From: Yuukianura sp. NJ FZ-2021
Lineage: Eukaryota
Direction: 5' to 3'
Assembly (NCBI GenBank): GCA_046563655.1
Contig: CM102284.1
Span: 1,364,001 to 1,428,000 of the forward strand
DNA length: 64,000 bases
The notes under the pieces are model-generated. The model saw only the letters and a program-made list of their open reading frames with translations, did not search any database and was not told the origin of the DNA. Both the position numbers and the translations under genes were made by a program. Position 1 is the first letter of the stretch. The number at the start of each line of letters is the position of its first letter. Shown here piece after piece: positions 1-33,503 of this stretch.

Positions 1-345
1 ATGTAACCTAACTTGGCCAACTTGAACTGAGCAAAGTCAAAGTAAAATTTAGTACAGTTAAAAAATCTCTTTTTTTTTATATATTACCTTTGTGGTGAGT
101 AGTGCTCTTGAATACACTCTGCTAGTCTTGTATAAGCGGAACTCTGATTTAATTTAAAATTAAATTAATTTTCTATAGCTGATAAACATGCCAACACATA
201 TAAAACGGTTTATATTAGTTTATGCGTAGTTTGTATTTCAAAAATTTCCATAAAATTTAAATATAGAAAATGTAATATTGACAAATGTGGCACAATTGCG
301 TAAAATTAGTTTAAAATATCAAATATACAAAACATTCAATTAAAT

Positions 346-1395
346 TTAAGTTCGTGTAAGCACTATTTTTAGTTCTCGTGTCGTAGACTCTTTCGTGTGG
401 ATTTTCAAATGACGTCTAAATACATCGTTGCAATCAAATCCAGCGTCACAAAATTCACAACAGTATTTGAATCTCCCGCCGAGTTGATTTTTACTTCCCC
501 GTTTTTCTAATTCGTCCTTCTTACGTTGCTCAAGTATTTTGTGACCAGTAGTGCCAAGATGCTTCCATAAACTCTGAGCGGATACAAACTCCACTGAACA
601 GGTTTGGCACGAATAAGGTTTTTCCCCTGTGTGTCTCCTGACATGAACATCTAAGTATGTCTTTACAGCGAATTGCCTTGCGCACAATTTGCAATTGAAA
701 AGTTTGTCCTGTTTGTGCTTCTGTTCATGGCGTTGCAATTGTACTTTTAGTGGAAATCCTTCTCCGCATGTTTCACACTGGAGTCTGTTTCGCCATTCTT
801 CATGCGTCATTAAATGAGCCCAGTGGTTACCGCTGATTTGCTGTTGACAGAATTTGCAGAAGACAGGTTTTCCTATTCCATGCACTTGGCGCATGTGAAT
901 CTTCAAATCCATTTCACGTACGAACACCTTGGGACATGCTGTACATTTCTGAGGAGTTTGCTTGTTGTGTAGTTCCAAATGGACCAACAGATTCTGCTTC
1001 TGCCGAGCAGCGTAAGGGCAAAGCGAACACCGAAAATCTTTGTTGAGGTCGTGAACTTTTTCATGACATTCTTTATTATATTTTGTTGTAAATCGTCGCG
1101 GGCATATTTTGCACTGAAATGGTTTCTCGCCTGTATGACGACGCATGTGTATCGCGAGGTTAGCGGCAAATGGAAACGCATGATTACAGACGTTGCATTT
1201 GTAATTCTTGGTTTCATCGTGCGACCTTTGATGTGTTTTGAGTCCATTCCTTGATGCAAATTCCTTTCCGCATTGCTTACATTTATCCAAATCCTGTGCA
1301 GTGTGTATGCGTAAGTGATACGCCAAGTCTTCCCTATGAGCAAACCCTTTGCGACACAGTGTACATTTATGTCGCTTGTCTCCCGCTTTCCCCAT
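346..1395 (-). CDS. C2H2 zinc-finger protein, about 11 fingers, tandem paralog 1
   Basis: 349-aa ORF with repeated C-x2-C-x12-H-x3-H units and HTGEKPF/Y linkers; splice acceptor gttctag just upstream of the ATG (~1408). Confidence 0.95.
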   Translation of the reverse strand: MGKAGDKRHKCTLCRKGFAHREDLAYHLRIHTAQDLDKCKQCGKEFASRNGLKTHQRSHDETKNYKCNVCNHAFPFAANLAIHMRRHTGEKPFQCKICPRRFTTKYNKECHEKVHDLNKDFRCSLCPYAARQKQNLLVHLELHNKQTPQKCTACPKVFVREMDLKIHMRQVHGIGKPVFCKFCQQQISGNHWAHLMTHEEWRNRLQCETCGEGFPLKVQLQRHEQKHKQDKLFNCKLCARQFAVKTYLDVHVRRHTGEKPYSCQTCSVEFVSAQSLWKHLGTTGHKILEQRKKDELEKRGSKNQLGGRFKYCCEFCDAGFDCNDVFRRHLKIHTKESTTRELKIVLTRT

Positions 1396-1492
1396 TTTGA
1401 TTGAGCTCTAGAACAAGATTAAACATTAAATTGTGAGGAGCTGCAAAAAAGTAATATAATGTGTTATTAATGATGTTATTAATTGTATTAGT

Positions 1493-1940
1493 CCAAGGCC
1501 CGTAGGCCGGGGGGACTAGAGCTCCGGCTCTATCCTACTAACACCTTGGACGGGCGCGGGTTCGAGTCCCGGCGTCGCCGACACGAAAGTCGTTTTCCAG
1601 AAATGGTTTTTCCACTTTCCTAGCCCAGATGGGGTGTTCGGATGATAGGTCAGTTTGGGGGTTATGGGTGCGTGTGAAGAGGTCAGTAGTTGCTGTTGTG
1701 GAGGGGGGTCGTGGGCCGGTATGCGTACGATGCTGTTCCTGTCACTTGCCTGGAGCTGTGATATGTGGTAGGGCCCTAGCCCGTTCAGCTCTAGCAGAAA
1801 GCCTTTCGTCCTTCCCTCAGAACTTCTCGCCAACTATCTGACTGTACCACCGCCCCACCCCATAGGACCTCAACCCAACCCAGAAATTCCCTAACCCTTG
1901 TTGATAGAGCATATGCTAAAGTCAATAAATCCCGCAAAAA
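1493..1940 (+). mobile_element. tRNA-derived SINE with 15-bp target-site duplication
   Basis: Direct repeat attaattgtattagt at 1478-1492 and 1941-1955; tRNA-like head with B box GGTTCGAGTCC (1559-1569); AATAAA at 1924-1929 then a short A tail; GC-rich; absent from the equivalent region of paralogs 2 and 3. Confidence 0.8.
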
Positions 1941-3200
1941 ATTAATTGTATTAGTAGTTGTATCAACTACCATTACATCAAGTGAATTGCATCAACTGTA
2001 ATGGTATCAACACACAACTGTTAAAACGGCTATTTGTATCAACAAAAATAATCAAACTAATCTAAACTCAATTCAGCTTTATATACCTGTTGACACAATT
2101 CAGTTGATACAATGGCGTGCTTCCTCCAGTGCCACTACTTAGCAGTTAACTGACAATAAATTAAAATCAAACTGACCTGTCTTAAGAAAACTGCCAGTAG
2201 GGTATTCAGAGTGCAAAATTAGTACTTTCTGGTTTGAAAATCACAAAAGTGTGCAGGCAGAGAACTTGATTTTTTGACTTCGTCTCAAAGTTTTTTAATT
2301 CCAACTGCAAACAAAAACGTACAGGACGTTCCGTATTTTTAGAAAAGGTAGTGAAACAACATTGCCCGGGGTTTGTGCTTAAAATGTAAGTTCGTGGAAG
2401 GACTTTTTAGAGTTCACGTAGTATTTTAATTTCCTGTATGCTCCCCTAACATCCAATGTGAATTTTATTTTTTTCAAAAACAAAAACATCATTAAGAAAA
2501 TTTGTGTGACCTAACTTAACTAACTTAAGCAAAGGCAAAATGAAATTTAGTACTTATAACAATTTTCCTTGCAGCAAATATTTTTGTGGCTCCCCTTGAA
2601 ATCGAATCTAAAATGATTCCAGATGAAATCGCAACGTCGCCTGAACTGGAATCAAAAGTTCAAAAAAAAAATGTAAAAAGTGTAGAAGCAGTATTTTTAG
2701 AATTTTCTTTTTTGAAACAACATGGCCTGGGGCTTGTGCTTAAATTTGAATTCGTAGGGGAGCTATTTAGAGTTCAGTACCTTAGTTTTGAAACTTTCCA
2801 GTATGCTAACAGCTAACGAAAATTTTATTGCTATTTCAGAAAAAAAACTTCATTAAAAAAAATGTAAACTTAAACTTCCTTACTTAGGCAAAAGCAAAGT
2901 AGAATTTAGTACGATTAAAAAAAATTTCTTTGCAGTATACCTTTGTAATCAGTCCAGTACGTATAGTACTCCACTAGTCTTGTACAAATAGAATTTTAAT
3001 TTAACTTTAAAAATGAAATTGCAATACAAATACATTGAAAACGGCTTAAGTCATCTGACAATTTAGATGTATTTGACCATACAATTGTGAAAACGTAGTT
3101 TGTAAAAGTTCAAAGATTATTTCAATAAAATTAAAAATTAATTAATTTTGGCAAATGCTGCACAAATTAGTTTAAAATATCAAATATACAAAACATTCAA

Positions 3201-4286
3201 TTAAATTTGAATTCGAGTAAGCACTATTTTGAGTACTCTTGCCGTAGACTCTTTCGTGTGGATTTTCAAATGACGTCCAAATTCGTCGTAGCAATCAAAA
3301 CCAGCGTTGCAAAACTCACAACTGAATTTGAATCGCCCGCTGATTTTAGTTTCACTTCCCCGCTTTTCCAATTCCTCCGTCACTTGCCTCTTTCGACTTT
3401 GCTCGAATTCTTTCTTATGGCAAGCACTGCGTTGATGTCTTTTTAAATTCTGAACGGATACAAAGTCGACTGCGCATGTTTGGCACGAATAAGGCTTCTC
3501 TCCTGTGTGTCTCCTAACATGAGCATTCAACTTTGTCTTTACAGAAAATTGACGAGCGCACAATTTGCACTTGAAAAGTTTTTCTTCCTTGTGGTTCTGC
3601 TCATGGTATAGCAAATTATGTTTTGTGGAAAATCCTTCTCCGCATGTTGAACACTGGAACCTGTTTCGCCATTGTTCATGCGTCATTAAATGAGCCCATC
3701 GGTTACCTCTGATTTGCTGTTGACAGAATTTGCAAAAGAAGGGTTTTCCTATTCCATGTATTCTGCGCATGTGCATCTTCAAATCCACACCCCGTAGGAA
3801 AACTTTGGAACATGCTGTACATTTCTGAGGAGTTTGCTTGTTATGCAGTTCCATGTGGACCAAAAGACGGTGCTTTTGTCGAGCTGCGTAAGGGCAAAGC
3901 GAGCAGGGAAATTCCTTGTTGAAGTCGTGAACTTTTTGATGATTGTTTCTAGTCTCTTTTGTTGCAAATCTTCGGGAGCATATTTTGCATTGAAATGGTT
4001 TTTCGCCTGTATGACGACGCATGTGTTGCACGAGGAGGGAGGGAATTCCAAACGCATGATTACAGACGTTGCATTTATAATTCTTAGTTTCATCGTGTGC
4101 ATTTCGATGTATTCTGAGTCCGTCCCTTGATGAAAATTCTTTTCCGCATTGGTCACATTTGTCCAAATCCTGTCCAGTGTGTATGCGCAAGTGATACGCC
4201 AAGTCTATCTTCTTATGAAACGTTTTGAGACACACTGTACATTTGTGTCGCTTGCTCTCCGTTTTCCGCATTTTGATTGCCGGCAT
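3201..4286 (-). CDS. C2H2 zinc-finger protein, tandem paralog 2
   Basis: Colinear with paralog 1 along its length; likely start MPAIKMRK after the ttctag acceptor near 4291. The 5' extension in the ORF track to 4412 is probably intron. Confidence 0.93.
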   Translation of the reverse strand: MPAIKMRKTESKRHKCTVCLKTFHKKIDLAYHLRIHTGQDLDKCDQCGKEFSSRDGLRIHRNAHDETKNYKCNVCNHAFGIPSLLVQHMRRHTGEKPFQCKICSRRFATKETRNNHQKVHDFNKEFPCSLCPYAARQKHRLLVHMELHNKQTPQKCTACSKVFLRGVDLKMHMRRIHGIGKPFFCKFCQQQIRGNRWAHLMTHEQWRNRFQCSTCGEGFSTKHNLLYHEQNHKEEKLFKCKLCARQFSVKTKLNAHVRRHTGEKPYSCQTCAVDFVSVQNLKRHQRSACHKKEFEQSRKRQVTEELEKRGSETKISGRFKFSCEFCNAGFDCYDEFGRHLKIHTKESTARVLKIVLTRIQI

Positions 4287-5732
4287 CTGCTCTAGAACTA
4301 AATTCAGCTTTAATTTTGAAAAATTGTAAAGAAAAAAATATGTTTGTATTAGATTTCCAACCCCCTGAGCTGGTTCATAATATTGGGTCAATTGAATTGC
4401 ATCAACTACCATTACATCAAATGAATTTTGTCAATTGGAATTGCACCAGCGCTCAACTGCGTCAACGGCTAATTGTATCAGCGAAAATAATCAAACATAA
4501 CATAAGCTAAATTAAGCGTAATATACCATAATTGACATAATTAAGTTGAAATAATTGTAGTTGACGCAACTCAGTTGATATAATGGCAGTTGAGATTATT
4601 CAATTACCACAATATCGCTAACTTCCTCCAGTGCTACGAATTACCAATTAGTTGAGTTAAAATTAAACTAACTTACCTTAACGAAACTGCGAGGGAAATT
4701 TTTTCTAAATGTGCAAAGTCGTTTCTTCCTGTTTTGAAAATTACAGAAGTGTAGAAGCAGAGCAGTTGATTTTTTGCCTTCCTTTCAAAGTTCTTTAATT
4801 CCAACTGTACACAACAGTGTACAGGACGGTCCGTATTTTTAGAAAAGAGTTTCAAACAACATGGCCTGGGGCTGTGCTTAAATTCAAGTTCGTTGAAGAA
4901 TTTATTTTGACCTACCGCGGCGTCATTGTTCCAACACGTTCCTGTATGCCATATAACAGCTAACGTGAATTTTCTTTTAAACAAAATCTTCACTTAAAAA
5001 ATTATTTAACCTAACTTAACTAGGTTCAACTAAGCAAAGACAAAGTAAAATTTAGTACAATAGAAAAATTTCTGAAATGATTGATATGTAGAATCCAATG
5101 AATCCACTGTAAATCAGCGGTCAACTCTGGCCTGTAGCAACTGACTCGTTCGTTTGATTAGTTGAAGTTTATTTAGATCCAAATTAAAGTTAAAGGAATG
5201 AATGAAAAGACTTAAAAGTTAAGTTATGAGAATTGAAATTGGAGAGACTTAATCTCTAGATCCTACTCCTATGAAGTACGGAATTGAACTTATTCTTATT
5301 CTTATGCCTATGCATCACAATACAAAAGGAAAACCCAGAAATGCTAAATTTAAAACCAACGCTATAAGTTAGCCTCAAGCGCTAACCGACAAATCTTTCG
5401 TTTTGTGATGCTAATTTTAAACTTGGCGCTTTTGCCCCAATTCACCCCAACAATTTCTTTGCAGAATATATTACGATTGTGGTGAGTCCACTACAGAATA
5501 CACTCCACAAACAATATTTCAATTCAATTTAAAAAGTTAAACTTCACTAAGTTATGAACATACAAATACATTGAAAGCGATTTGTCATCTTGCTATTAAA
5601 CAGTATTTAACTATACAATTAGCACGTTAGTTTTTAAAATTTCAACGATTTCCAAACAAAGAAAAATATAATTTTGACAAAATGTACCGCAACCAAAATT
5701 AATTTTAGAATATTAAACAAAAGATAGCATAA

Positions 5733-6800
5733 TTAAATTTGAATTCGTGTAAGCACAAGCGTCAGTACGCGCGTCGTAGACTCTTTCGTGTGGATTTTCA
5801 AATGACGTCCAAATTCATCGTAGCAATCGAAACCAGCGTTGCAAAATTCACAACTGAATTTGAGTCGCCCGCTGAGTTGATTTTCAATTCCCCGATTTTT
5901 CAATTCGTCCTTCGTTTCTTTCTTCTGAGATTGCTCAAGTTTGTTGTGGCCAGTAGTATGTCGATGTCTGCTTAACTTCTTAGCGGATGCAAATTCGATT
6001 ACGCATGTTTGGCACGAATAAGGTTTCTCCCCCGTGTGTCTCCTAACATGAGCATCCAAGGACTGCTTTAGTCCAAATTGACTTGCGCACAATTTGCATT
6101 CGAAAAGTTTTTCTTCTTTGTGTTGCTGCTCATGCATTTGCAAATTATGTTTTCGTGAAAATTCCTTGCCACATTTTGGACATTGGAATCTGCTCCGCCA
6201 TTCTTCATGCGTCATTAAATGAGTCCATCAGTTACCTCTAATATGTTGTTGACAGAATTTGCAGAAGAAGGGTTTTCCTATGCCATGTATTCTTCGCATG
6301 TGCATCTTCAAATCCCTTTCACGCCCGAAAACTTTGGGACATGCTGTACATTTCTGAGGAGTCTGCTTGTTGTGAAGTTCCATGTGGCGAACAAGAAGTT
6401 GCTTGTGTCGAGCAGCGTAAGGGCAAAGTGAACATGAAAATTCCTTGTTGAGGTCGTGAGTTTTTTCATGACATTTTGCATTCTTTTTTATTGCAAATCG
6501 TCGTGAGCATATTTGGCACTGAAATGGTTTTTCGCCTGTGTGACTACGCATATGCTGCGTGAGGAAGGCGGCACATGCAAATGCATGATTACAAACGTTG
6601 CATTTATAATTCTTAGTTTCATCGTGTACATTTCGATGCAATTTGAGTCCGTTCCTTGATGTAAATTCTTTTCCGCATTGCTCACATTTGTCCAAATCCT
6701 GTCCAGTGTGTACGCGTAAGTGATACGCCATGTCTGCTGCACTAGCATATCGTTTGGGACATAGTGTACATTGGTGTCGCTTGTCTGCTAATTTCCTCAT
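5733..6800 (-). pseudogene. C2H2 zinc-finger paralog 3 with in-frame nonsense codon
   Basis: ORFs 6228-6860 and 5733-6215 are in the same frame, separated only by TGA at 6228-6230 where paralog 2 has CGA (Arg) and paralog 1 has CAC (His). Confidence 0.8.
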
Positions 6801-6924
6801 TCTGATTCTGGCGGGTCTAGAACAGAATTCAACATTTTGAAAAAAGAATAATGCAAACAAAAGTTTTCAGTAAGATTTCAAATTATTCAAAGATTTTTAA
6901 TTCAGTGATTTCTAACTAATAATA

Positions 6925-7138
6925 CATTGTGCAAATTGAATTGTATCATTTCATTTCATCAGGTGAATTGTCTCAACTGTAATTCCGTCAACACTGAACT
7001 GTGTCATCGGCTACTTGTATCAAAGAACCTAACTTATGTAACCTAAATTAAGTTTTATACACACATTGACACAATTCTAGTTGATACAATTCCAGATGAT
7101 AAAATGGCAGTTGATGCAATTCAATTGACACAATGACC
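6925..7138. repeat. Foldback/MITE-like inverted repeat in the ZNF upstream intron (related copies at ~1956-2115 and ~4381-4610)
   Basis: cattgtgcaaattgaattgtatca ... tgatgcaattcaattgacacaatg are imperfect inverted ends with internal tcaact/agttga sub-repeats; present in all three ZNF units. Confidence 0.6.
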
Positions 7139-8143
7139 AAGTTACAATACTATTTAGAAGTTAATTGAGCTAAAATTAAACGAACCTGCTTTAAGGAAAC
7201 TGCCAGTACTGTGTTAATTCTTTAGAATGTGCAAAATTGGTACTACTTACTGTGTGAAGATCACAAGAGAGTGGAAGCGGAGCAGTTGATTTTTGTCCTT
7301 CTTTCAAAGTTCTTTAATTCAAACTGCATACAACATCGTATAGGACGGTCAGTATTTTTAGAAAACATGTTTGAAACAACATGGCCTGGGGCTAGGCTAG
7401 TAAAGAACTAGCAAAATTGACCTTTCAAGCAAATCCAAACTGCACGCGAAATTTCACATTGATTTGCAAAATACAACAGTAAACAAAAATTATTAAAAAA
7501 AATCTTAAGAATGAGCATTGTCCAACTGCCCTACTTTCGAACAATCTGGAAATTCCATTATAATAACAATAGCATTTGTATTTCTCACGATGTTCATTTG
7601 GTAACAAAAATAACGTTTCTTGGCTAATCAACTCTCATTGCCACTCTTAAGAAAATGTCCAATATGTTTAAATTTTAGTTCCACTCGAAGCGAATTTGCG
7701 TCAATGGAAATTTTGCTGTCCAGAAGACGGGATTTTCCCGCAATCATTTTAAGTGAAAATAAAACATAGAAGTTTTTCCTTGTGAATTTCTGTCACGGAT
7801 TAAAGTCTAGCAAAACTTGTTTTATAAACGAGTTTAAAAAAAATTTTTTTTTCTTTAGCAGGTATTGTAGTTACAAAAATTAGCTTGGAAACAAAAAAAA
7901 ATTATCTGCCTTACAAGAAATGGGTTTCATAATTTTATTCAAGGATAACCTTAAGTTTCAAATTTTCAAAACTTTTTGAATGGTAAAACTTTATTGTTAC
8001 ACGGCTAGCCTAATGCCATAAACATAAAATGAATTTTTGGTTTTCCTATGATACATGAATTGAGATGATTTGTTCAGATCAAAAATATTTGCTACTATTT
8101 CTTCTAAATTTTTAGAATTGAGCAGTTCGTGGAGCATGAGCAG

Positions 8144-23006: not shown

Positions 23007-26000
23007 TTACATGCACATGAAGTTACCGCAGAGATTTTCGCAGCACGATTTACTGCCAGTACAAGCCAAGGCCGGATCGTTGTTGCAGCTGCTCGATTCT
23101 TTCGGTTGCGGAGAACACATATACGGTTGGTTGCCGAGGCTGCATTTGCGAGCACCTTCGATAAAATTTTGTGAAAAAACGTTTTCAAAGAAGGGATTCG
23201 ATTATCGGCGTGTTTTGGGCCCCGGCAAAAGTGGGTGTATTTGAAATGACGACATGATGAAATTTTCAGGATAGCTAGATGAAACCCTTTAGAAAACTGT
23301 GTGAAATTTTCAAAATGACGTCATTTCAAATACTGGTCCAACTTGGGGTCCAACTCCGGCAACTTTTTGCGGATTTGAAGCTCAAAAAATTGCAAAAATA
23401 GGGAAAATGCTTCGGCAACCGTGTTCTTGGGCGATGTTTGCAGTAAGAGTTAACAGTTTCGCAACGAAAAAACGCAAAAGTTTGGAGTTGTACAGTAAGC
23501 AAAACCCAATTGCGGGAATTGTGCAGGAAAAAGGCAAAAGTGGAATTTGTGCAGCACGAAAAACGCAAAAGTGGAATTTGTGCAGCACAAAAAAACGAAA
23601 AAGTGGAATTTGTGCAGCACAAAAACCGAAAGGTGGACGATTGTGCATCTTTTTTTTTTTTTTTTCAATTTGAATTTTTATTTCACAGTCACCTGCCAAA
23701 GGCAGGTTGAGAAAAGAAGTAGGATTTAAATTAGATTATAATATGAATAATTCGTAAAGATCTTTTCCTGAGGGTAAGGTTCCCAAGATTGAGCAGGAGT
23801 TTCCGCGTTGAACAGCTAGGCTTATTCGTTGTAGGAAGAAGGTCGTGGCTCGTTTATCTCCAGATGTTTCTGACAGCCGATGTCCGATTTGTTTTAGTAG
23901 ACGAAGACCTTCGGATCCGAATACACCTGATGTCTCGACGGCAATGATGGATACCACGAAGCGAGATTCTAGGTCACGATAGAGATGATGTTTGTGTGTC
24001 TCTGCTAATTCGGCTGCATGACCATAGCGGGAAGACGATGTCGAAAGGTAGGAATTTGCATAAGTGTCACGGCAGGTAAAGTCCCAGCAGAGGCAGCGTC
24101 CTGAGCTCCAAGGAATGAGAGTAACACCATCTGGTCGTTTGCCATCGGATCTGCTGCAGCCGACAGGTTCTTTAATTGAAGGAAATCCAGCGGTTTGTAA
24201 TGCTCTGAAGATTATGTCGTTGACTGAGTTGTGACGCGAGTGTCTTCCGGCGCTACGCTTACAGCTTAAACCGTGGAGACCGTTACTTGACACCGGAGCA
24301 CCGCACGAGCAGATATGAGGTTGGCATATATCAGTTCCTAGGCGAAGAGCACAAGAAATCCTAAAAGATTCGTCCGAAAGTAGAGTTCCAAGTTGTCCGG
24401 AGGGAATTGCGTGTAACCAATCTCCAGAATGTGGTGCAGCGGCAGCCAGTAGTCTTGCTTTGTCGATAAGGGTTGAAGAGTTCTGAACTAGGGAAGAAGA
24501 AATTTGCTTAAAGACTTGAATTTCCCAGAGGTTTTGAGATTTTTTGTCCTGTGGAATAACGAAGCCCAATTGAGACCAGTTGAACAAAGCCAAATCCATT
24601 GAATTGTCGAAGGGTGACAGGGAAGACGGCAGAAATGTAGAAATTAGCTCCGCACAACTATGGACTGATGCCAAAAACGAAAATGTAGCGCAGTCCTTAG
24701 CGTGGCGAACTCCTAATCCGCCCAAATTCACCGGAAGACTTGACTGAGACCAAGCGTCTGAAGACAAAGTAGAGTTGAGAATTGATTCCATCACTGCACG
24801 TAGCGCACAGTCGTATGCTTCGAGAAGATCGGTTTCCAAAAATGAAGGAGCACATCGGAGGAAATATAGAAGTCTTGGGGTGGAAATTGAAGCTCGAAGC
24901 AGGTAGAACGCGATGTGGGCTGGTAATTCCGACAACTTGGATGAGAGTGACTTGAAGTACTCTGTTTTGCATTTGAGAATCCGACGAGTCGATTCTTTGA
25001 AAAGAGGCGCTCCTAGAAGTTCAGCTTGGTCAGATTCAGGAAAGATGATGTCTGGAGAAATAGATTGGAATGATTGGACGATTGATCTGGATTCATCTGC
25101 GTCTGCGTTTAGGATGATGACTTCACATTTCCTTAGGTTGAGTTCTAGTCCAAACGAAGAGGCTTCTCTTTGGATGTACTTTAGATTTTCTAGAACGACA
25201 TCCGGAGTATCGGCAATCGTTGCGTCGTCCAAATACCAGATGTTGAAATCAGTGGTTAAAGTAGAGGCCAGCTGGTGGATTGTTAAAGCGAAAAGAGCAG
25301 GACCAAGGGGATCCCCCTGCTGCACTCCTAGTTTCGATTTGATGCAAGCAGAGTCGTAGTAGAGATCTGAGTCGTGCGAATAAGCTTCAGAGACGAATTT
25401 GTAGAAGTCTGGAAGTATGGTCTTCACAATGTCCAGCATACGGTCTCTTCTAATTAAGTTGAAGGCATTGCGAAAGTCCATCTTGAGTAGAACCTTGGCA
25501 GAACCATGGTTGGCATTACAGAAGATTCTGGCAGCGTGGGCGACGGCTTCAGCACCATTCTTGATTCCAACGCCAACTTGGATCGGGCTTAAGGTTGAAG
25601 TAATGACATTCAACGAGTGAGATAGGATAAGTTTAGACACGAGGCGTCTCCAAGTAAGGCCGATTGCGATAGGACGAATGCCTCCTTTCTTCTTTTGGAT
25701 TGCTAATAGAGTTGCACCAAAAAAAATTCGTCTCACTTCATCGGGAAGAGAACCATTTGCAATGAAGTTACACAATCCAGAAACTGATGCTAGAAGAGCT
25801 GCTCCTTCATCGCCTGAGGACTTTGAAGTTAGTTCCTTTAGAATCTGTGGACGAAAAGAGTCCAGGCCTCCGGCGGATCCATTTGGGAATGACGAGATGG
25901 CTTTGATGACGTGACAGTTTTCAAAGATAACCTCAGATCTCGGAGGTGCGGCAGGAAACGAGGTTGGTAGTGGATGATCGGGATGCAATTGGTGGAGAAT

Positions 26001-27757
26001 GTTCAAAGTATCAGAGTCTTTGGAGGCTATGCAATCTTCGGAGACCAGGATTCGAACTGCACCGCGTATATCCCCGTCGGCTAGTTTAGATTGAATGACC
26101 TTTGAGGAGTTACAGTGATGTGAGGACGGATGATGGCCACGAGAGAATTGCTTGAATTGATGATGGGAGATGTTTGCAGGCGCCTCAGAAGTGATACGGC
26201 TAGCGTTTGTCTTCACCCATTTGGTTAGATTTGTGACAGCATCGTCTTTTGACGGGATGGGAAAAACTTGGTAGGGGAAGTAGAATAACTTTGCCCAAGA
26301 ATCTGTAGAGTTGTGCTCGATTGCTTGGTCGATGATGGTGGACAGGGCAGAGGCGGTCGTTCTTCTTGCTCCTTTTGGAATGTGTTTGAGTGTGGACGTA
26401 GATTTTCTTAAGTCAGCAAGCTTTAGCCCAAGAGAAGTTGTAGAGATATCCTCATTGGAAGGAGCGGACCAAGTGATGTCGAAGTAAGATTGTTGAGAAT
26501 GTTTGCGTCCGCCGGCTCGTGTTTTGGTAATGTTTGGAAAAGCTTTTAATAGTTTCAATCCAATTGTCGCGTCGGCTAAAGGTTTGATCTTCACATCAGA
26601 GCAAAAAGAATGGTATTTATCTTTTAGATCTTGTTTCTTGATCAAAGCTCCAGAAGCCTCCTGAATGTTGTTCTTGATCCAGTCGTCAGTTAGTTTAGAA
26701 ATTTGTGATTTTCTTAAGCACCCAGTGGATGACGTAGTAGATGACGATGATGTAGTTGATGAACCACTGAACTCCAATCCGCAGTCATCGGATGATGACC
26801 CGATTCCGGGGTTCTCCGTGGTTGTGTCCAGGGTGTTATCATAAATCAAATTGATCGTTGAATTTTCTGGAAAATTGAGTTGGATGTTTGTTTCACAACT
26901 TCCGAGGTATCTCATCTGTCGTTCAGTTGCCATGAAGAGCAGAAAAGGTTGTCTAAATCCGTGAATTTTCAAGATTTAAAGTTGAATTTGATAATTTGTT
27001 GACAAGGTAACGCTTAGCAGCACAAGTAGTTGTTTGTTTGAAAACGTCCTTCGAGTTGTCCAGAGATGAGAGACGACTTGGACGATGAAGATGGCCGGGT
27101 TGACGGATATCCGGAGACAAAATGACCAAACAAGTATGTCAAAAGATGCGCGAGAGATTGAGGAACAGTTTGATAATTGTGCATCTTGAAAACTGAATAG
27201 TTTGAAATTGTACAACATCAAAAACCGACAAGTTTGAAATTGTACAATATAAAAAACACAAAAGTAAGCAAGTGCACCATTCACAAATTGCAAAATTTGA
27301 AATTGTGCATTTCAAAAACTGAAAACCTGTGAAATGGTTCAGTCCTCCACACAAAAGTTTAAGTGTACAACTTAAAAAACCCGAAAAGTGGAACATGTGC
27401 AGTGTGAAAACCCGAAAGGTGGTACATGTGCACTTTAAAAACCCGAAAAGTGGAATTTGTGCAATGTAAAAACCTGAAAAGTGGATTTTGTGCACTATAA
27501 AACCCAGGTGGTAATTGTGCAATTCAAAAGTACAATTTTGTTATCAAAGTACACATGAATCCTGGGCCCAGTAATTTACACGGCGAGAAAGCGAAATGGG
27601 CCCAAAATCAACCAATTCCCGTAGGTGTCCTTTGGAATTTTCGTAAGTTGAAATAAACTTGTCAGTTACCCGGTGTTACAGCTGCTCCTTCTACTGATTC
27701 AAATGTCAACATGACTGCTGCCAATACTGCAGTGAGAACGAACACTTTCAAATTCAT
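23007..27757 (-). CDS. Secreted single WAP/four-disulfide-core-like peptide, copy A; exons 27757-27670 and 23155-23007, 4.5-kb intron filled by insertions
   Basis: MNLKVFVLTAVLAAVMLTFESVEG + ARKCSLGNQPYMCSPQPKESSSCNNDPALACTGSKSCCENLCGNFMCM; 8 Cys with C..D...C....CC...CG...C; same phase-1 intron position as copy B. Confidence 0.8.
23476..23651. repeat. ~31-bp minisatellite, left part (~6 units, consensus aaaagtggaatttgtgcagcac-aaaaaccg)
   Basis: Directly visible tandem units; the last unit is cut by the retrotransposon poly(T). Confidence 0.9.
23652..27175 (-). mobile_element. Full-length-looking CRE-clade (RLE-type) non-LTR retrotransposon
   Basis: Poly(T) 23650-23665 (A tail), minus-strand AATAAA at 23677-23682, TSD attgtgcatct(t) at 23640-23651 and 27176-27187, single intact intronless ORF. 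Confidence 0.92.
23736..26933 (-). CDS. Retrotransposon polyprotein: RFX-type winged helix + reverse transcriptase + Cys/His knuckle + restriction-like endonuclease
   Basis: RT motifs GIRPIAIG, DFRNAFN, GVQQGDPLGP, YLDD; C-terminal CSCG..HGLSC, RH, EP, KRPDG, WDFTC; N-terminal WIKNN..KYHSFC..PL..ATIG..L...F..I.KTRAGGR..S...YF.I; first ATG at 26933. Confidence 0.93.
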   Translation of the reverse strand: MATERQMRYLGSCETNIQLNFPENSTINLIYDNTLDTTTENPGIGSSSDDCGLEFSGSSTTSSSSTTSSTGCLRKSQISKLTDDWIKNNIQEASGALIKKQDLKDKYHSFCSDVKIKPLADATIGLKLLKAFPNITKTRAGGRKHSQQSYFDITWSAPSNEDISTTSLGLKLADLRKSTSTLKHIPKGARRTTASALSTIIDQAIEHNSTDSWAKLFYFPYQVFPIPSKDDAVTNLTKWVKTNASRITSEAPANISHHQFKQFSRGHHPSSHHCNSSKVIQSKLADGDIRGAVRILVSEDCIASKDSDTLNILHQLHPDHPLPTSFPAAPPRSEVIFENCHVIKAISSFPNGSAGGLDSFRPQILKELTSKSSGDEGAALLASVSGLCNFIANGSLPDEVRRIFFGATLLAIQKKKGGIRPIAIGLTWRRLVSKLILSHSLNVITSTLSPIQVGVGIKNGAEAVAHAARIFCNANHGSAKVLLKMDFRNAFNLIRRDRMLDIVKTILPDFYKFVSEAYSHDSDLYYDSACIKSKLGVQQGDPLGPALFALTIHQLASTLTTDFNIWYLDDATIADTPDVVLENLKYIQREASSFGLELNLRKCEVIILNADADESRSIVQSFQSISPDIIFPESDQAELLGAPLFKESTRRILKCKTEYFKSLSSKLSELPAHIAFYLLRASISTPRLLYFLRCAPSFLETDLLEAYDCALRAVMESILNSTLSSDAWSQSSLPVNLGGLGVRHAKDCATFSFLASVHSCAELISTFLPSSLSPFDNSMDLALFNWSQLGFVIPQDKKSQNLWEIQVFKQISSSLVQNSSTLIDKARLLAAAAPHSGDWLHAIPSGQLGTLLSDESFRISCALRLGTDICQPHICSCGAPVSSNGLHGLSCKRSAGRHSRHNSVNDIIFRALQTAGFPSIKEPVGCSRSDGKRPDGVTLIPWSSGRCLCWDFTCRDTYANSYLSTSSSRYGHAAELAETHKHHLYRDLESRFVVSIIAVETSGVFGSEGLRLLKQIGHRLSETSGDKRATTFFLQRISLAVQRGNSCSILGTLPSGKDLYELFIL
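27176..27524. repeat. ~31-bp minisatellite, right part (~11-12 units)
   Basis: Same orientation and same tgtgca/tgtaca core as 23476-23651. Confidence 0.88.
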
Positions 27758-28238: not shown

Positions 28239-28550
28239 TTACATACAGTGGAAGCCATTACACGAAGTTTCGCAGCACAATTTTCCGTCGGTACAGGCCA
28301 ATGCCGGATCATTTTTGCAACTGCTCGGTTGGATCGGACGCGGACACGGGGCCGGCATCGGGGGTAGGCATCCACGCGGGCCTTCAAGAAAATTTGCATA
28401 TAAAAACGTTCAATTTTCGTCTTTTGAGTTTTATTAAATTGAAAAACTTTAAAGTTTTTAGTTACCCGGTATTCCCGCTCCTTCTACTGGCTCGAATGTC
28501 AACATCACTGCTGCCAGTACTGTAGTGATAACGAGTACTTTCAAATTCAT
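28239..28550 (-). CDS. Secreted single WAP-like peptide, copy B; exons 28550-28466 and 28381-28239
   Basis: MNLKVLVITTVLAAVMLTFEPVEG + PRGCLPPMPAPCPRPIQPSSCKNDPALACTDGKLCCETSCNGFHCM; upstream and 3' regions resemble those of copy A. Confidence 0.82.
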
Positions 28551-28995
28551 AATTTTTTCGAAGACTTGAAAAACGATGATTGACTGAACTAAGCTTGGTA
28601 ACTGTAGCTTTGTCAACTGAGGACTAAATTCCAAGGTGTATAATGCTCAAGGATAAGACTAGTTGTTCTAAATTACCGTTAACTGACAACTTAATTAATT
28701 TTGAGGTTACGCCCCCCACAACCACAAAATTATCTTCCATAGCAACATGCAACTTCATTAGCAAGGCTAGTCACAATTGAAATGGAGAGTACTGGACAGT
28801 ACCTTCCCTTAGAAATGTAGCTAACATTAGAATGCATTTATTGGTAACATTTCAAACCATTTTAAACGTTTAGATTTAGATAGAAAGTGTGAAACGCTGA
28901 ATCAGAGCGGCGTTAATATGAGCATTTTAAAATCAAAATTTTTATAAAAATTAATTTAAACGTACATAAAAGTAGGACGGAACCGCTGGACATAG

Positions 28996-31463: not shown

Positions 31464-31629
31464 TTCGTTAATCCTAACCCTGAACCCCGTGATCTTTAAC
31501 AAAAGTCGAGCTAGTTTAATTACCAGTTGACAAGGCTGAGGCTTAAAGAAAGAAGATAATTTCCAGTACCAAAGTAGGAATACGTAATTAACTAAAACTA
31601 AAAGTAACAATTCAACTTTAACTGATTAG

Positions 31630-32581
31630 CAGAGGCGCAAAACATATGTTGTTAAAACCGGTGAAATATGTATGTAAATATGTAGTAAGAATCAGTGAAA
31701 TATTTACTAAAATATTTTTTATTTTACGATAAATTTAGCTATATGTTAAAAATTACTACACAACATTAGTTGGGATTGAGTATTACAGAACACCTATTCC
31801 GGAAAAATTTTGATTTAGTGTATACTATTTTTCAGAATTATATTAAAAAAAAATTGGCCGGAAATAAAAAGAAACCGAGTTCAAATAAAAAACAAAAAAA
31901 TTTGCACAAAAATCGGTTGTTAAAATCGTATAATTAATCAGTGACTATGTTGTGACTATGTTGTGGCTATATTGTGACTATGTTGTGGCTATGTTGTGGC
32001 TATGTTGTGGCGATGTTGTGATTATATTGTGGCTATGTTGTGGCTATGTTGTGGCTATGTTGTGATTATGTTGTGGCTATGTTGTGACTATGTTGTGGCT
32101 ATGTTGTGGCTATGTTGTGATTATGTTGTGGCTATGTTGTGATTATGTTGTGGCTATGTTGTGGCTATGTTGTGATTATGTTGTGGCTATGTTGTGATTA
32201 TGTTGTGGCTATGTTGTGATTATGTTGTGGCTATGTTGTGATTATGTTGTGGCTATGTTGTGGCTATGTTGCGGCTATGTTGCGATTATGTTGTGATTAT
32301 GTTGTGGCTATGTTGTGGCTATGTTGTGGCTATGTTGTGGCTATGTTGTGAAAATTATTTAAATTATTTTTGAAAATTATATTAAAAAAATTAATCCCAA
32401 CACTACGCGAACCCTTGATAAACGATTTGTGCATGACAAACAGTATAAAATTTGCAAAAATGCCAAATTTTTGCAAAATCTTAGAATATTTTGTTAAATA
32501 TTTTTCATATTTTTTTTCAAGAAATATTTTTTTAAAATATAAAAATATGTAATATGTAAGAAAATATGTTTTGCGCCTCTG
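31630..32581. mobile_element. hAT-type MITE carrying a minisatellite
   Basis: Perfect 18-bp TIR cagaggcgcaaaacatat; exact 8-bp TSD ctgattag (31622-31629, 32582-32589). Confidence 0.93.
31942..32350. repeat. 11-bp minisatellite tatgttgtg(gc/at/ac), about 37 copies
   Basis: Directly visible tandem array. Confidence 0.97.
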
Positions 32582-33503
32582 CTGATTAGGTAAACTCGAT
32601 TGAGCTTCTCACATCTCACAACTTTATACTTGTTGTTGTTGAAGTAAGGTTCATGATGCCTCGATGTACCCCCACGGCATACCATTACAACATATAACAT
32701 ATTGTACCCCACATATCGCCAAATCCACCGATTCCAATGTATAATTGTATCTGCGCCTGGGGGATGGGGTTACATGCGTTAGTATTGCTGGATATCTACT
32801 TTTTTTGACATATCGTCTACTGGATATCTTGTGCATTACATTTTATTCGGTTTTATCCGGAAGACATGGCTGAATAAAATAGACATAAATGGATACTTCC
32901 GGATAATTCCACCTAATTTGATGTAGTAGGCTGGAGAAATATTTTATCCATCTGACAACGACAACACCAGGTAGATATAAACCTAACCTCTCATAACTTC
33001 TCACGTACTTCTTGGTGTGCAATTAGCAACCATAAACCTTATGTCAACCAATTGTTTATGTTTTGCAGCTTTTTTAGTCTCAGAGAAAAAGCCAGATAAC
33101 TCAGATAAGTCAGACAGGTAGCCAATGTCGCCTTGTCATCCCATGACGACCCCGTTCAAGTAATAATATATCGTTGGAACGGGCATTGCCTCCCGATTCA
33201 GAAAATGTACATTATTGCTGCTTATTAAGTAGCAACACGAATCCTGTAATATTTCAAACCCAATATGTCAAAATATCAATATCAACTAAATAATATCTAC
33301 AATTTACAAACATCAATAAAAATTTGTGCAAGCCCACAATCAAAGAAGCGGAACTAACTACAAATTGTCGACTATACATTTTAGCAGTAGGTATACAGTT
33401 TATAGTTTAGTACATAGTTCGGTTTGTCATATTCACTTTGGGAACGTTCTCGACAGCGGGAGTAACTTCTATTTTGAAGTCTAACAACGCTGGAAACTTA
33501 ATT

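Follow-up and report, generated by a model that had tools for sequence, protein, structure and literature searches.

The minus strand of the 64-kb window (the whole stretch of DNA that was analysed) carries at 23652-27175 a 3,524-nt non-LTR retrotransposon. It interrupts a minisatellite of 17 units, ~31 nt each, which lies within the ~1-kb intron of a gene for a small cysteine-rich peptide; the element has the sense orientation relative to this gene. The element encodes a single intact open reading frame (ORF), ends in a poly(A) tail and is bordered on both sides by copies of a perfect target duplication (Table 1). Its 3′ untranslated region (UTR) forms a stem-loop with a predicted folding energy of −13.5 kcal/mol (z = −3.37), matched by 1 of 200 shuffled sequences.

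Table 1. Features of the retrotransposon and of the interrupted minisatellite (positions in the window).
Feature	Position	Strand	Basis or remark
Left minisatellite part, 6 units plus first 4 nt of the interrupted unit	23464..23651	.	TRF period 31/32; unit parsing and alignment
Target-site duplication, copy at element 3′ end	23640..23651	.	ATTGTGCATCTT; last T or two possibly tail-templated; 12 nt, longest string shared by both junctions
Poly(A) tail (A16) of element	23652..23667	-	T16 on + strand
Element 3′ UTR	23668..23735	-	Stem-loop ACCUGCC/GGCAGGU at ~23691-23707
Intact single ORF, 1,065 aa	23736..26933 (stop codon included)	-	ORF list; homologues
CCHC knuckle and restriction-like endonuclease, residues ~875-1003	23925..24311	-	Conserved columns, model, Foldseek
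Reverse transcriptase domain, residues 412-641, YLDD box	25011..25700	-	Pfam RVT_1 E 9.1e-18; R2 RT profile E 2e-11
RFX-type winged-helix DNA-binding domain, residues 82-154	26472..26690	-	Pfam PF02257 E 5.7e-10; RFX5 8zjr, RFX1 1dp7
5′ UTR remnant, 242 nt	26934..27175	-	Copy stops here; most public-run copies extend at least 74-113 nt further
Target-site duplication, copy at element 5′ end	27176..27187	.	12 nt, longest string shared by both junctions
Right minisatellite part, remainder of the interrupted unit plus 10 units	27188..27521	.	TRF; unit parsing and alignment

The insertion and its array

A first-pass annotation had placed the element cleanly inside one 31-bp unit, with the duplication lying over the conserved core of the repeat. 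Removal of 23652-27187 by script left 17 consecutive units of 27-32 nt, and the unit spanning the joint (23648-23651 plus 27188-27214) measured 31 nt. The insertion in the 31-nt minisatellite is real, and its coordinates and anatomy are confirmed. Conservation in the alignment of units is highest at the columns TTG-TGCA and AAAAAC; the duplication indeed spans ATTGTGCA together with the four following nucleotides. However, every clean insertion that duplicates its target restores the array in register on removal, so that this is no evidence of aiming; likewise, a random 12-nt duplication covers a given 6-mer inside a 31-nt unit in 7 of 31 placements. What is non-trivial is that the element lies in a tandem array in the first place; this array makes up 522 of the 60,464 nt that remain once the element and one duplication are removed (~0.9%). 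Growth of the array after the insertion was considered and rejected, the units to the left and to the right of the element sharing one register.

Tandem Repeats Finder (TRF) detected the flanking arrays on either side of the element. Numerous distinct contigs of the public sequencing runs overlap the minisatellite units, the maximum at a single position being 17 (27229, run X1), which indicates that the repeat is multi-locus. The uninterrupted unit junction ATTGTGCATCTTG was found in three contigs of run X5. The array contains no canonical X-box half-site. The description of the minisatellite as transposon-borne is weakly supported: the search for inverted terminal repeats of a carrier transposon gave only a 10-nt inverted match (E 0.055), and a paralogue has an intron without the array-carrying block.

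The family to which the element belongs is multi-copy and young. Contigs identical to it over 207-591 nt occur in the public runs at depths several-fold to tens-fold above that of the flank (X3, 54-93 versus 8.5; X5, 2073-2585 versus 95.7), ratios that vary too widely among runs to give a copy number. Within the 64-kb window, tblastn and blastn found no second copy or fragment. No near-identical sequence was present in the viral, prokaryote-genome or metagenome collections, and an exact 41-nt pattern from the 3′ UTR had 0 matches in prokaryote genomes and viral contigs.

Beyond position 27175, contigs from four public runs continue at high depth with 74-113 additional letters in common. Loose ends behind this position, in X1, X2, X5 and record 24 of X3, have depths near that of the element interior (among the 24 of 280 loose ends and 32 of 1,444 pieces listed, with 23641-23683 masked). 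A contig of a diverged subfamily (X2 record 16, agreement 0.95) also carries the continuation, which marks it as element sequence and hence the window copy as truncated; this copy is probably 5′-truncated rather than full length.

An R2-like protein with an RFX-type front end

Of 7,999 candidates, 240 are homologous to the 1,065-aa ORF at E ≤ 0.001, with a best identity of 52%. Its domains follow one another in the order RFX winged helix, reverse transcriptase, CCHC knuckle and restriction-like endonuclease. The winged helix noted in the first pass proved to be of the RFX type, both by Pfam (40.1 bits against a cut-off of 27) and by matches to the structures of RFX5 and RFX1; in the wing, R, G, R, S and Y of the element align with both proteins, and the region was modelled with pLDDT 80-89 for residues 81-140. 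Whereas cellular RFX transcription factors have an architecture free of reverse transcriptase, the RFX domain is here fused to a reverse transcriptase and an endonuclease.

In a Foldseek search with the whole model, R2 proteins ranked on top (E 2 × 10−16). The full-length AlphaFold model reached a pLDDT of only 30-55 at residues 888-1065, and for this reason the endonuclease was modelled again as a separate domain from 96 sequences, giving a pLDDT of 94.1. All seven Foldseek matches of the refolded domain at E ≤ 0.001 were R2 proteins, followed by nucleases of the PD-(D/E)XK fold at E > 0.03. Near-invariant positions among the 96 sequences are C875, C877, H887 and C891, RH at 900-901, PD at 934-935, D951 and K981..Y985 (motif names after PMC4838377). 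The restriction-like endonuclease of the earlier annotation is thus upheld by its motifs and by its model. Three features of the class are present: a single ORF with a LINE-type reverse transcriptase, a CCHC knuckle followed by a PD-(D/E)XK-type endonuclease, and an N-terminal DNA-binding module, here of the RFX kind. The front end of the element is an RFX winged helix in place of zinc fingers or Myb.

Relatives and known systems

The element was placed in a rapid tree, rooted at the midpoint, whose 58 rows comprised no named Dong or R4 sequence; there it falls outside a 30-row clade with (AAT)n tails (SH-aLRT 98) and within a 14-row clade that includes the Folsomia candida proteins P0010 and P0004 (SH-aLRT 98). 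These two share the RFX plus reverse transcriptase architecture (42-47% identity over 95-97% of the query) but represent other families; their names, ‘RFX-like transcription factor daf-19' and ‘R2DM pol polyprotein', come from automatic annotation. The Folsomia homologues are spread over several different large scaffolds. The wider clade exchanges its N-terminal modules, among which PHD, C2H2, OTU, USP, SAP and RFX were found.

In the neighbouring clade, 12 loci have (AAT)n on both sides, and metagenomic relatives (35-42% identity) carry at their ends a hairpin, an A-run and (AAT)n. Relatives in metagenome-assembled genomes comprise 11 loci, all at 46% identity or less. Among relatives whose 3′ flank is visible, the closest are L001 and L003 (51% identity), and neither has a tandem repeat there; a search of these two for target duplications returned only 9-nt chance matches. 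No flanks were common to different loci of the RFX clade. An HDV-like ribozyme at the 5′ end is a feature of R2, R4 and Dong. Rfam found no ribozyme or RNA gene at E ≤ 1 over the element region, a chance miRNA match apart, in this copy without its 5′ end, and none in L001-L040 (40 of the 80 metagenome loci).

R2 has 28S rDNA as its target, which it reads through zinc fingers and Myb. Its proteins (R2Bm, R2Tg and turtle R2; 8gh6, 9dou, 9nl3, 9nl2) resemble that of the element in the single ORF with an N-terminal DNA-binding module, reverse transcriptase, CCHC knuckle and restriction-like endonuclease, and are the best structural match to both its whole model and its C-terminal domain; integration through target-primed reverse transcription is a probable further likeness. 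The element differs from R2 in its RFX front module, Pfam finding no zinc finger or Myb; in its site, where Rfam detects no rRNA (23300-27700); in its poly(A) tail and 12-nt duplication; and in sequence, the similarity being weak (E 0.0088 with a single sequence).

Tx1L of Xenopus laevis sits inside an internal tandem repeat of Tx1D. According to PMC1950540 and PMC6719617, its site is a specific one and Tx1D is a DNA transposon, which makes Tx1L a precedent for a LINE harboured by another mobile element. Tx1L has, however, an APE-type endonuclease, whereas that of the window element is restriction-like, and its specificity was shown biochemically, whereas that of the window element is conjecture.

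The R4/Dong group consists of LINEs with a restriction-like endonuclease that reside in tandem repeats, Dong in (TAA)n microsatellites and R4 in 28S rDNA (PMC7998251). The window element is likewise such a LINE in a tandem repeat, and its 3′ UTR has a hairpin, as in the (AAT)n-tailed relatives. By contrast, it ends in a plain A16 tail with 31-nt units at both junctions rather than in (TAA)n or rDNA; compared with Dong, it has RFX instead of the divergent Myb reported there, and the repeat at its site is of 31 nt instead of 3 nt. NeSL/Utopia elements, again with a restriction-like endonuclease, target repeated genes and vary in their N-terminal modules, which include zinc fingers and an Ulp1-like protease (PMC4640811). 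The exchange of N-terminal modules is a likeness to the wider clade of the element, while the targets of NeSL/Utopia differ, being U2 snRNA or spliced-leader genes. That text describes no RFX domain for them (‘winged' occurs 0 times).

Readings of the insertion site

We consider it best explained, with a probability of about 45%, that the copy is a recent, ordinary insertion through target-primed reverse transcription of an active, multi-copy R2-like LINE whose family is not strictly specific for the 31-nt repeat. In such an event the endonuclease would have nicked the + strand immediately 3′ of ...ATTGTGCATC(TT), a position that in the unit would follow TGTGCATC(TT). The 3′ OH, ending in T, could then have annealed to the poly(A) terminus of the element's RNA and served as the primer for the cDNA. 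The second strand would have been cut 12 nt off, an offset that gives rise to the target duplication, and copying would have halted, or switched template, ~100 nt before the 5′ end. The element may have landed, or survived, in tolerant AT-rich repeat DNA, at an intron site of presumably little cost to the host, and a preference for a step between a T-run and an A-run, which suits poly(A) priming, may have helped in the choice of site.

An ordinary, unspecific insertion is supported by the tandem-repeat-free flanks of L001 and L003, by the unshared flanks within the RFX clade, by the array without an X-box half-site, by the three uninterrupted unit junctions in X5 and by the several scaffolds of the Folsomia homologues. 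Against it count the small share of the window taken up by the array, the multi-locus nature of the target, the 12 related loci flanked by (AAT)n and the presence of a sequence-reading DNA-binding domain at the position of the targeting domain of R2. With one insertion site known for the family, non-specificity is no better proven than specificity.

A tentative alternative is that the RFX domain, the endonuclease or both allow the family to recognise the 31-nt unit, probably at its TTGTGCA core, the minisatellite serving as a multi-locus and possibly transposon-borne safe harbour. Such targeting might be likened to that of Dong on (TAA)n and of Tx1L on the Tx1D transposon. In its favour, the insertion fell inside an array of so limited an extent, the most strongly conserved columns of the unit lie between the cuts, and the contigs over the units, with the three further ones carrying the junction, point to several target loci. 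Precedents agree with it: most LINEs with a restriction-like endonuclease are specific for repeated targets (abstract of PMC4640811), the (AAT)n-flanked relatives recall the insertion of R4/Dong in rDNA or microsatellites (PMC7998251), and Tx1L aims at another transposon (PMC1950540 and PMC6719617). However, the evidence from the family is a single insertion, whose in-register restoration is automatic and whose coverage of the core has the chance frequency given above; the poly(A) tail, the long duplication and the 5′ truncation are no less compatible with unspecific LINEs. The missing half-site, the closest relatives outside tandem repeats and at least three uninterrupted copies of the unit junction argue in the same direction. 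A role of the RFX winged helix as the reader of the 31-nt repeat is a candidate one, and conjectural. What stands is a real insertion and a good lead; the repeat specificity that it suggests is tentative and unproven.

A more elaborate form of this alternative, which we regard as rather unlikely, holds that an R2-like lineage swapped its zinc-finger/Myb module for RFX and that one young family was thereby aimed at a lineage-specific, multi-locus 31-nt minisatellite on another mobile element. If true, a swap of the DNA-binding module would have redirected an element in nature, and its target, its cut positions (staggered by 12 nt about TTGTGCA) and an intact enzyme would be available together. 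R2-type elements are under development as tools for gene insertion at chosen sites, and how far the N-terminal DNA-binding module determines the target is a central question for such tools. An intact, recently active element with an RFX module is a natural experiment in this respect, and the present copy offers a candidate target with mapped cut sites; should the sites of the family prove scattered, the finding would shrink to one more RFX-bearing LINE copy.

It is improbable that the site was chosen through a preference for a short motif or DNA shape, for example the step between T-run and A-run beside TGTGCA, which would occur once per unit and elsewhere, so that arrays would be hot spots and not a dedicated target. 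The nick at CATCTT|GAAAAC would lie at a step from T-run to A-run suited to poly(A) priming, an A-run is present in every unit and T-runs follow the core in several; yet a single copy is equally compatible with the targeting and the unspecific readings. Finally, a repeat-induced misjoin in the assembly that put the element into the array is very improbable, for although neither junction is bridged among the contigs listed (32 of 1,444 pieces), a misjoin would not yield a perfect 12-nt duplication, an abutting tail and an array that closes in register.

Structure of the insertion and its protein

The element has the layout of a minus-strand non-LTR retrotransposon (see table), and RNA folding gave a stem-loop in its 3′ UTR (z = −3.37). 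The perfect target-site duplication, the pure tail, the intact ORF and identity to an abundant form point to a recent insertion of this copy. Five public sequencing runs from two studies contained 68–81% of the words sampled from the stretch, and four of them (X1, X2, X3 and X5) were compared in detail. Contigs identical to the element over 207–591 nt had a depth well above that of the flank (54–93 versus 8.5 in X3, 2073–2585 versus 95.7 in X5); as these ratios vary between runs, no copy number is given. Depth was higher over the 3′ UTR than over the interior, which is expected where many copies are 5′-truncated. In X1, X2 and X5, contigs over 26869–27175 extended past 27175 by 79–113 letters absent from the window, and the single X3 contig did so by 74 letters. 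The same extension occurs in a diverged contig with 33 differences and 10 gaps (agreement 0.95), so this is element sequence and the copy in the window is probably 5′-truncated.

Features of the insertion, its protein, the surrounding predicted gene and related metagenome loci
Feature	Position	Strand	Basis or loci
A16 tail (T16 on the plus strand)	23652–23667	−	sequence
Target-site duplication, 12 nt, ...GATTGTGCATCTT	left of T16, again at 27176–27187		junction comparison
ORF, 1,065 codons, uninterrupted	23736–26933	−	ORF list
5′ UTR remnant	26934–27175	−	layout of non-LTR retrotransposon
3′ UTR, 68 nt	between ORF and A16 tail	−	layout of non-LTR retrotransposon
RFX DNA-binding domain	residues 82–154		Pfam E 5.7e-10, 40.1 bits versus cut-off 27
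RVT_1	residues 412–641		Pfam E 9.1e-18
Predicted peptide gene, exon 1	about 27670–27757	−	frames; splice sites by eye
Predicted peptide gene, exon 2	about 23007–23155	−	frames; splice sites by eye
Hairpin CCCTCGGGA...TACCGAGGG, A-run and (AAT)n	first 60–110 nt after stop		L015–L017, L029, L035, L036, L039, L041, L042, L044
Same hairpin, A-run and (AAT)n, further loci			L047, L051, L052, L059, L061, L074, L075

Against PDB sequences, the N-terminal piece of the protein matched RFX5 (8zjr, E 8e-8) and RFX1 (1dp7, E 0.003), with which the wing residues R, G, R, S and Y of its RFX domain align, and a 13-sequence profile matched RFX5 (5e-14), RFX1 (5e-11) and R2 reverse transcriptases (2e-11). The best Foldseek matches of the full-length model (pLDDT 73.8, poor over residues 888–1065) were R2 proteins (9nl3 at 2e-16, then 8gh6, 9nl2 and 9dou). 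When the last 266 residues were folded separately with 96 homologues, pLDDT rose to 94.1 and all seven Foldseek matches at E ≤ 0.001 were R2 proteins, PD-(D/E)XK-fold nucleases coming next at E > 0.03. The R2Bm endonuclease motifs named in an excerpt of PMC4838377 (CCHC, RH, PD, D and K..KY) can all be recognized and scarcely vary across the family alignment, with leucine replacing the second lysine of K..KY in the window's copy. By its predicted structure the element is a restriction-like-endonuclease LINE, and would work like R2 and its kin. It differs from R2 proper in a site without rDNA and an N-terminus without ZF/Myb, and from Dong in junctions without (TAA)n. No paper joining RFX to such LINEs was found among those listed for the collection searched, beyond which the literature may hold one; the words RFX and winged are each absent from PMC13188248.

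The 31-nt array as insertion site

After 23652–27187 had been excised by script, the remaining DNA was split into 17 consecutive units of 27–32 nt ending in TGTGCA-like cores, the joint unit being 31 nt long; TRF gave a period of 31/32 on both sides of the element. Unit parsing and TRF thus confirm the first-pass annotation, according to which removal of the element restores a 31-nt unit in register. Its claim that the duplication covers the conserved core also holds, since in the unit alignment the duplication spans ATTGTGCA, the best-kept columns. A clean insertion with duplication always restores a tandem array in register, so the register carries no weight for aiming; by arithmetic, a 12-nt stretch dropped at random into a 31-nt unit would span any chosen 6-mer in 7 of 31 placements. 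The non-trivial part is that a tandem array was hit in the first place. Once the element is taken out, 60,464 nt remain, and the array makes up 522 nt of these (∼0.9%); besides it, the window has one other non-coding array, an 11-nt repeat at 31941–32350.

Array units were matched by many distinct contigs (for example, 17 at 27229 in X1), and in at least three X5 contigs a unit is joined to ATTGTGCATCTTG... by other letters and not by the element. The repeat and the unit junction therefore exist at other loci or alleles, and presence at other loci is a requirement for a multicopy harbour. It is less clear that a transposon carries the array, as had been proposed; the sole candidate for a terminal inverted repeat of such a carrier is a 10-nt match (E 0.055). 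By reading of frames, the array would lie in the intron of a minus-strand gene for a small, cysteine-rich peptide with a signal peptide. Matching blocks in this gene were ∼980 nt apart before the insertion, versus ∼80 nt in a tandem paralogue at about 28239–28560, and no Pfam family was found for either.

Element and array are in sense orientation within the predicted intron, and the peptide has eight cysteines. A separate MITE-like foldback at 23211–23348 has 32-nt inverted arms (23237–23268 and 23302–23333); one X3 contig holds a copy with a palindrome perfect to the outer 30 nt. The 11-nt array has ∼37 copies and 43-nt inverted repeats on its flanks (31612–31654 and 32557–32599). The whole, 31612–32599, has the appearance of a satellite-bearing mobile element, so mobile-element-borne arrays seem to occur in this genome. 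At 1–7400, a block of ∼2.5–2.9 kb is present in three tandem copies (repeat families D2–D14, 66–88% identity).

Relatives and site specificity

The protein search yielded 240 matches at E ≤ 0.001 among 7,999 candidates, the best with 51–52% identity. PF02257 was found in nine of the 120 relatives listed, the named ones being from Folsomia candida; others among those listed have PHD, C2H2, OTU, USP or SAP as N-terminal modules. Translations of N-termini (n = 51) gave one weak RFX match (L002), two PHD matches and nothing in 45. In a quick maximum-likelihood tree (58 rows, none of them a named R4, Dong or R2 element; midpoint root), metagenome locus L001 and protein homologue P0002 form a group with the protein of the window's element (SH-aLRT 99). 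This trio falls inside a 14-row clade with all nine RFX rows (98), itself inside a 25-row group with other N-terminal modules (98), and a 30-row clade of metagenome elements stands apart (98).

In the 30-row clade and its kin, (AAT)3 or longer lies downstream in 29 of 54 loci with a placeable stop codon, and inspection by eye showed, in about 19 of the 54, from many metagenomes, a hairpin CCCTCGGGA...TACCGAGGG with an A-run behind it. Twelve loci have (AAT)n on both the upstream and the downstream side, the signature of Dong. An excerpt of PMC7998251 gives rDNA or microsatellites as the insertion sites of R4/Dong elements, (TAA)n being that of Dong itself. Targeting of tandem repeats thus exists nearby in the family tree.

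We favour, with a probability of roughly 45%, an element family without strong site specificity. There is a single insertion, its features are common to unspecific LINEs too, the same unit junction exists uninterrupted, and the Folsomia homologues are spread over several large scaffolds. The nearest relatives also lie outside repeats: the 3′ flanks of L001 and L003 (51% identity) are without tandem repeat, and a target duplication looked for at these two loci was not found. RFX-clade loci have no flanks common to one another, and Rfam detected no RNA gene in L001–L040 (40 of the 80 loci).

Strict targeting of the 31-nt repeat by the family comes second, as somewhat less probable. It draws on the high prior for restriction-like-endonuclease LINEs (PMC4640811), on the Dong-like neighbours, on an insertion site that is a multi-locus repeat and on a sequence-reading domain, RFX, in the targeting slot. 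Excerpts of PMC1950540 and PMC6719617 provide a precedent in Tx1L, a LINE with another mobile element, Tx1D, as harbour. The endonuclease of Tx1L, however, differs in kind from that of the element. The RFX half-site consensus is GTNRCC / RGYAAC. Neither form occurs in the array, the nearest being GGCAAC at position 23414 (238 nt away from the nick); as the RFX domain of the element has diverged, this counts only mildly against the winged helix reading the repeat. That the family prefers a short motif, instead of targeting the whole repeat, is unlikely.

Several metagenome loci show further features. Downstream DNA of L016 (3686–4220) matches 5′ regions of Dong-like elements in L016 itself (288–830) and in L054 (18–314), which suggests head-to-tail or nested copies. 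In L036, a telomere-like (GGGTTA)7 run at 257–298 lies upstream of a Dong-like element. Ahead of its RFX-RT ORF, L001, the closest relative, has three features within 300–1320: a GC-rich, possibly structured 5′ region, degenerate C-rich repeats of ∼52 nt (620–1000) and, in an upstream frame, a stretch resembling a PHD finger. Loci L081–L091, filed as bacterial or archaeal MAG contigs, hold eukaryote-type restriction-like-endonuclease LINEs (26–46% identity), probably eukaryotic contamination of prokaryote bins.
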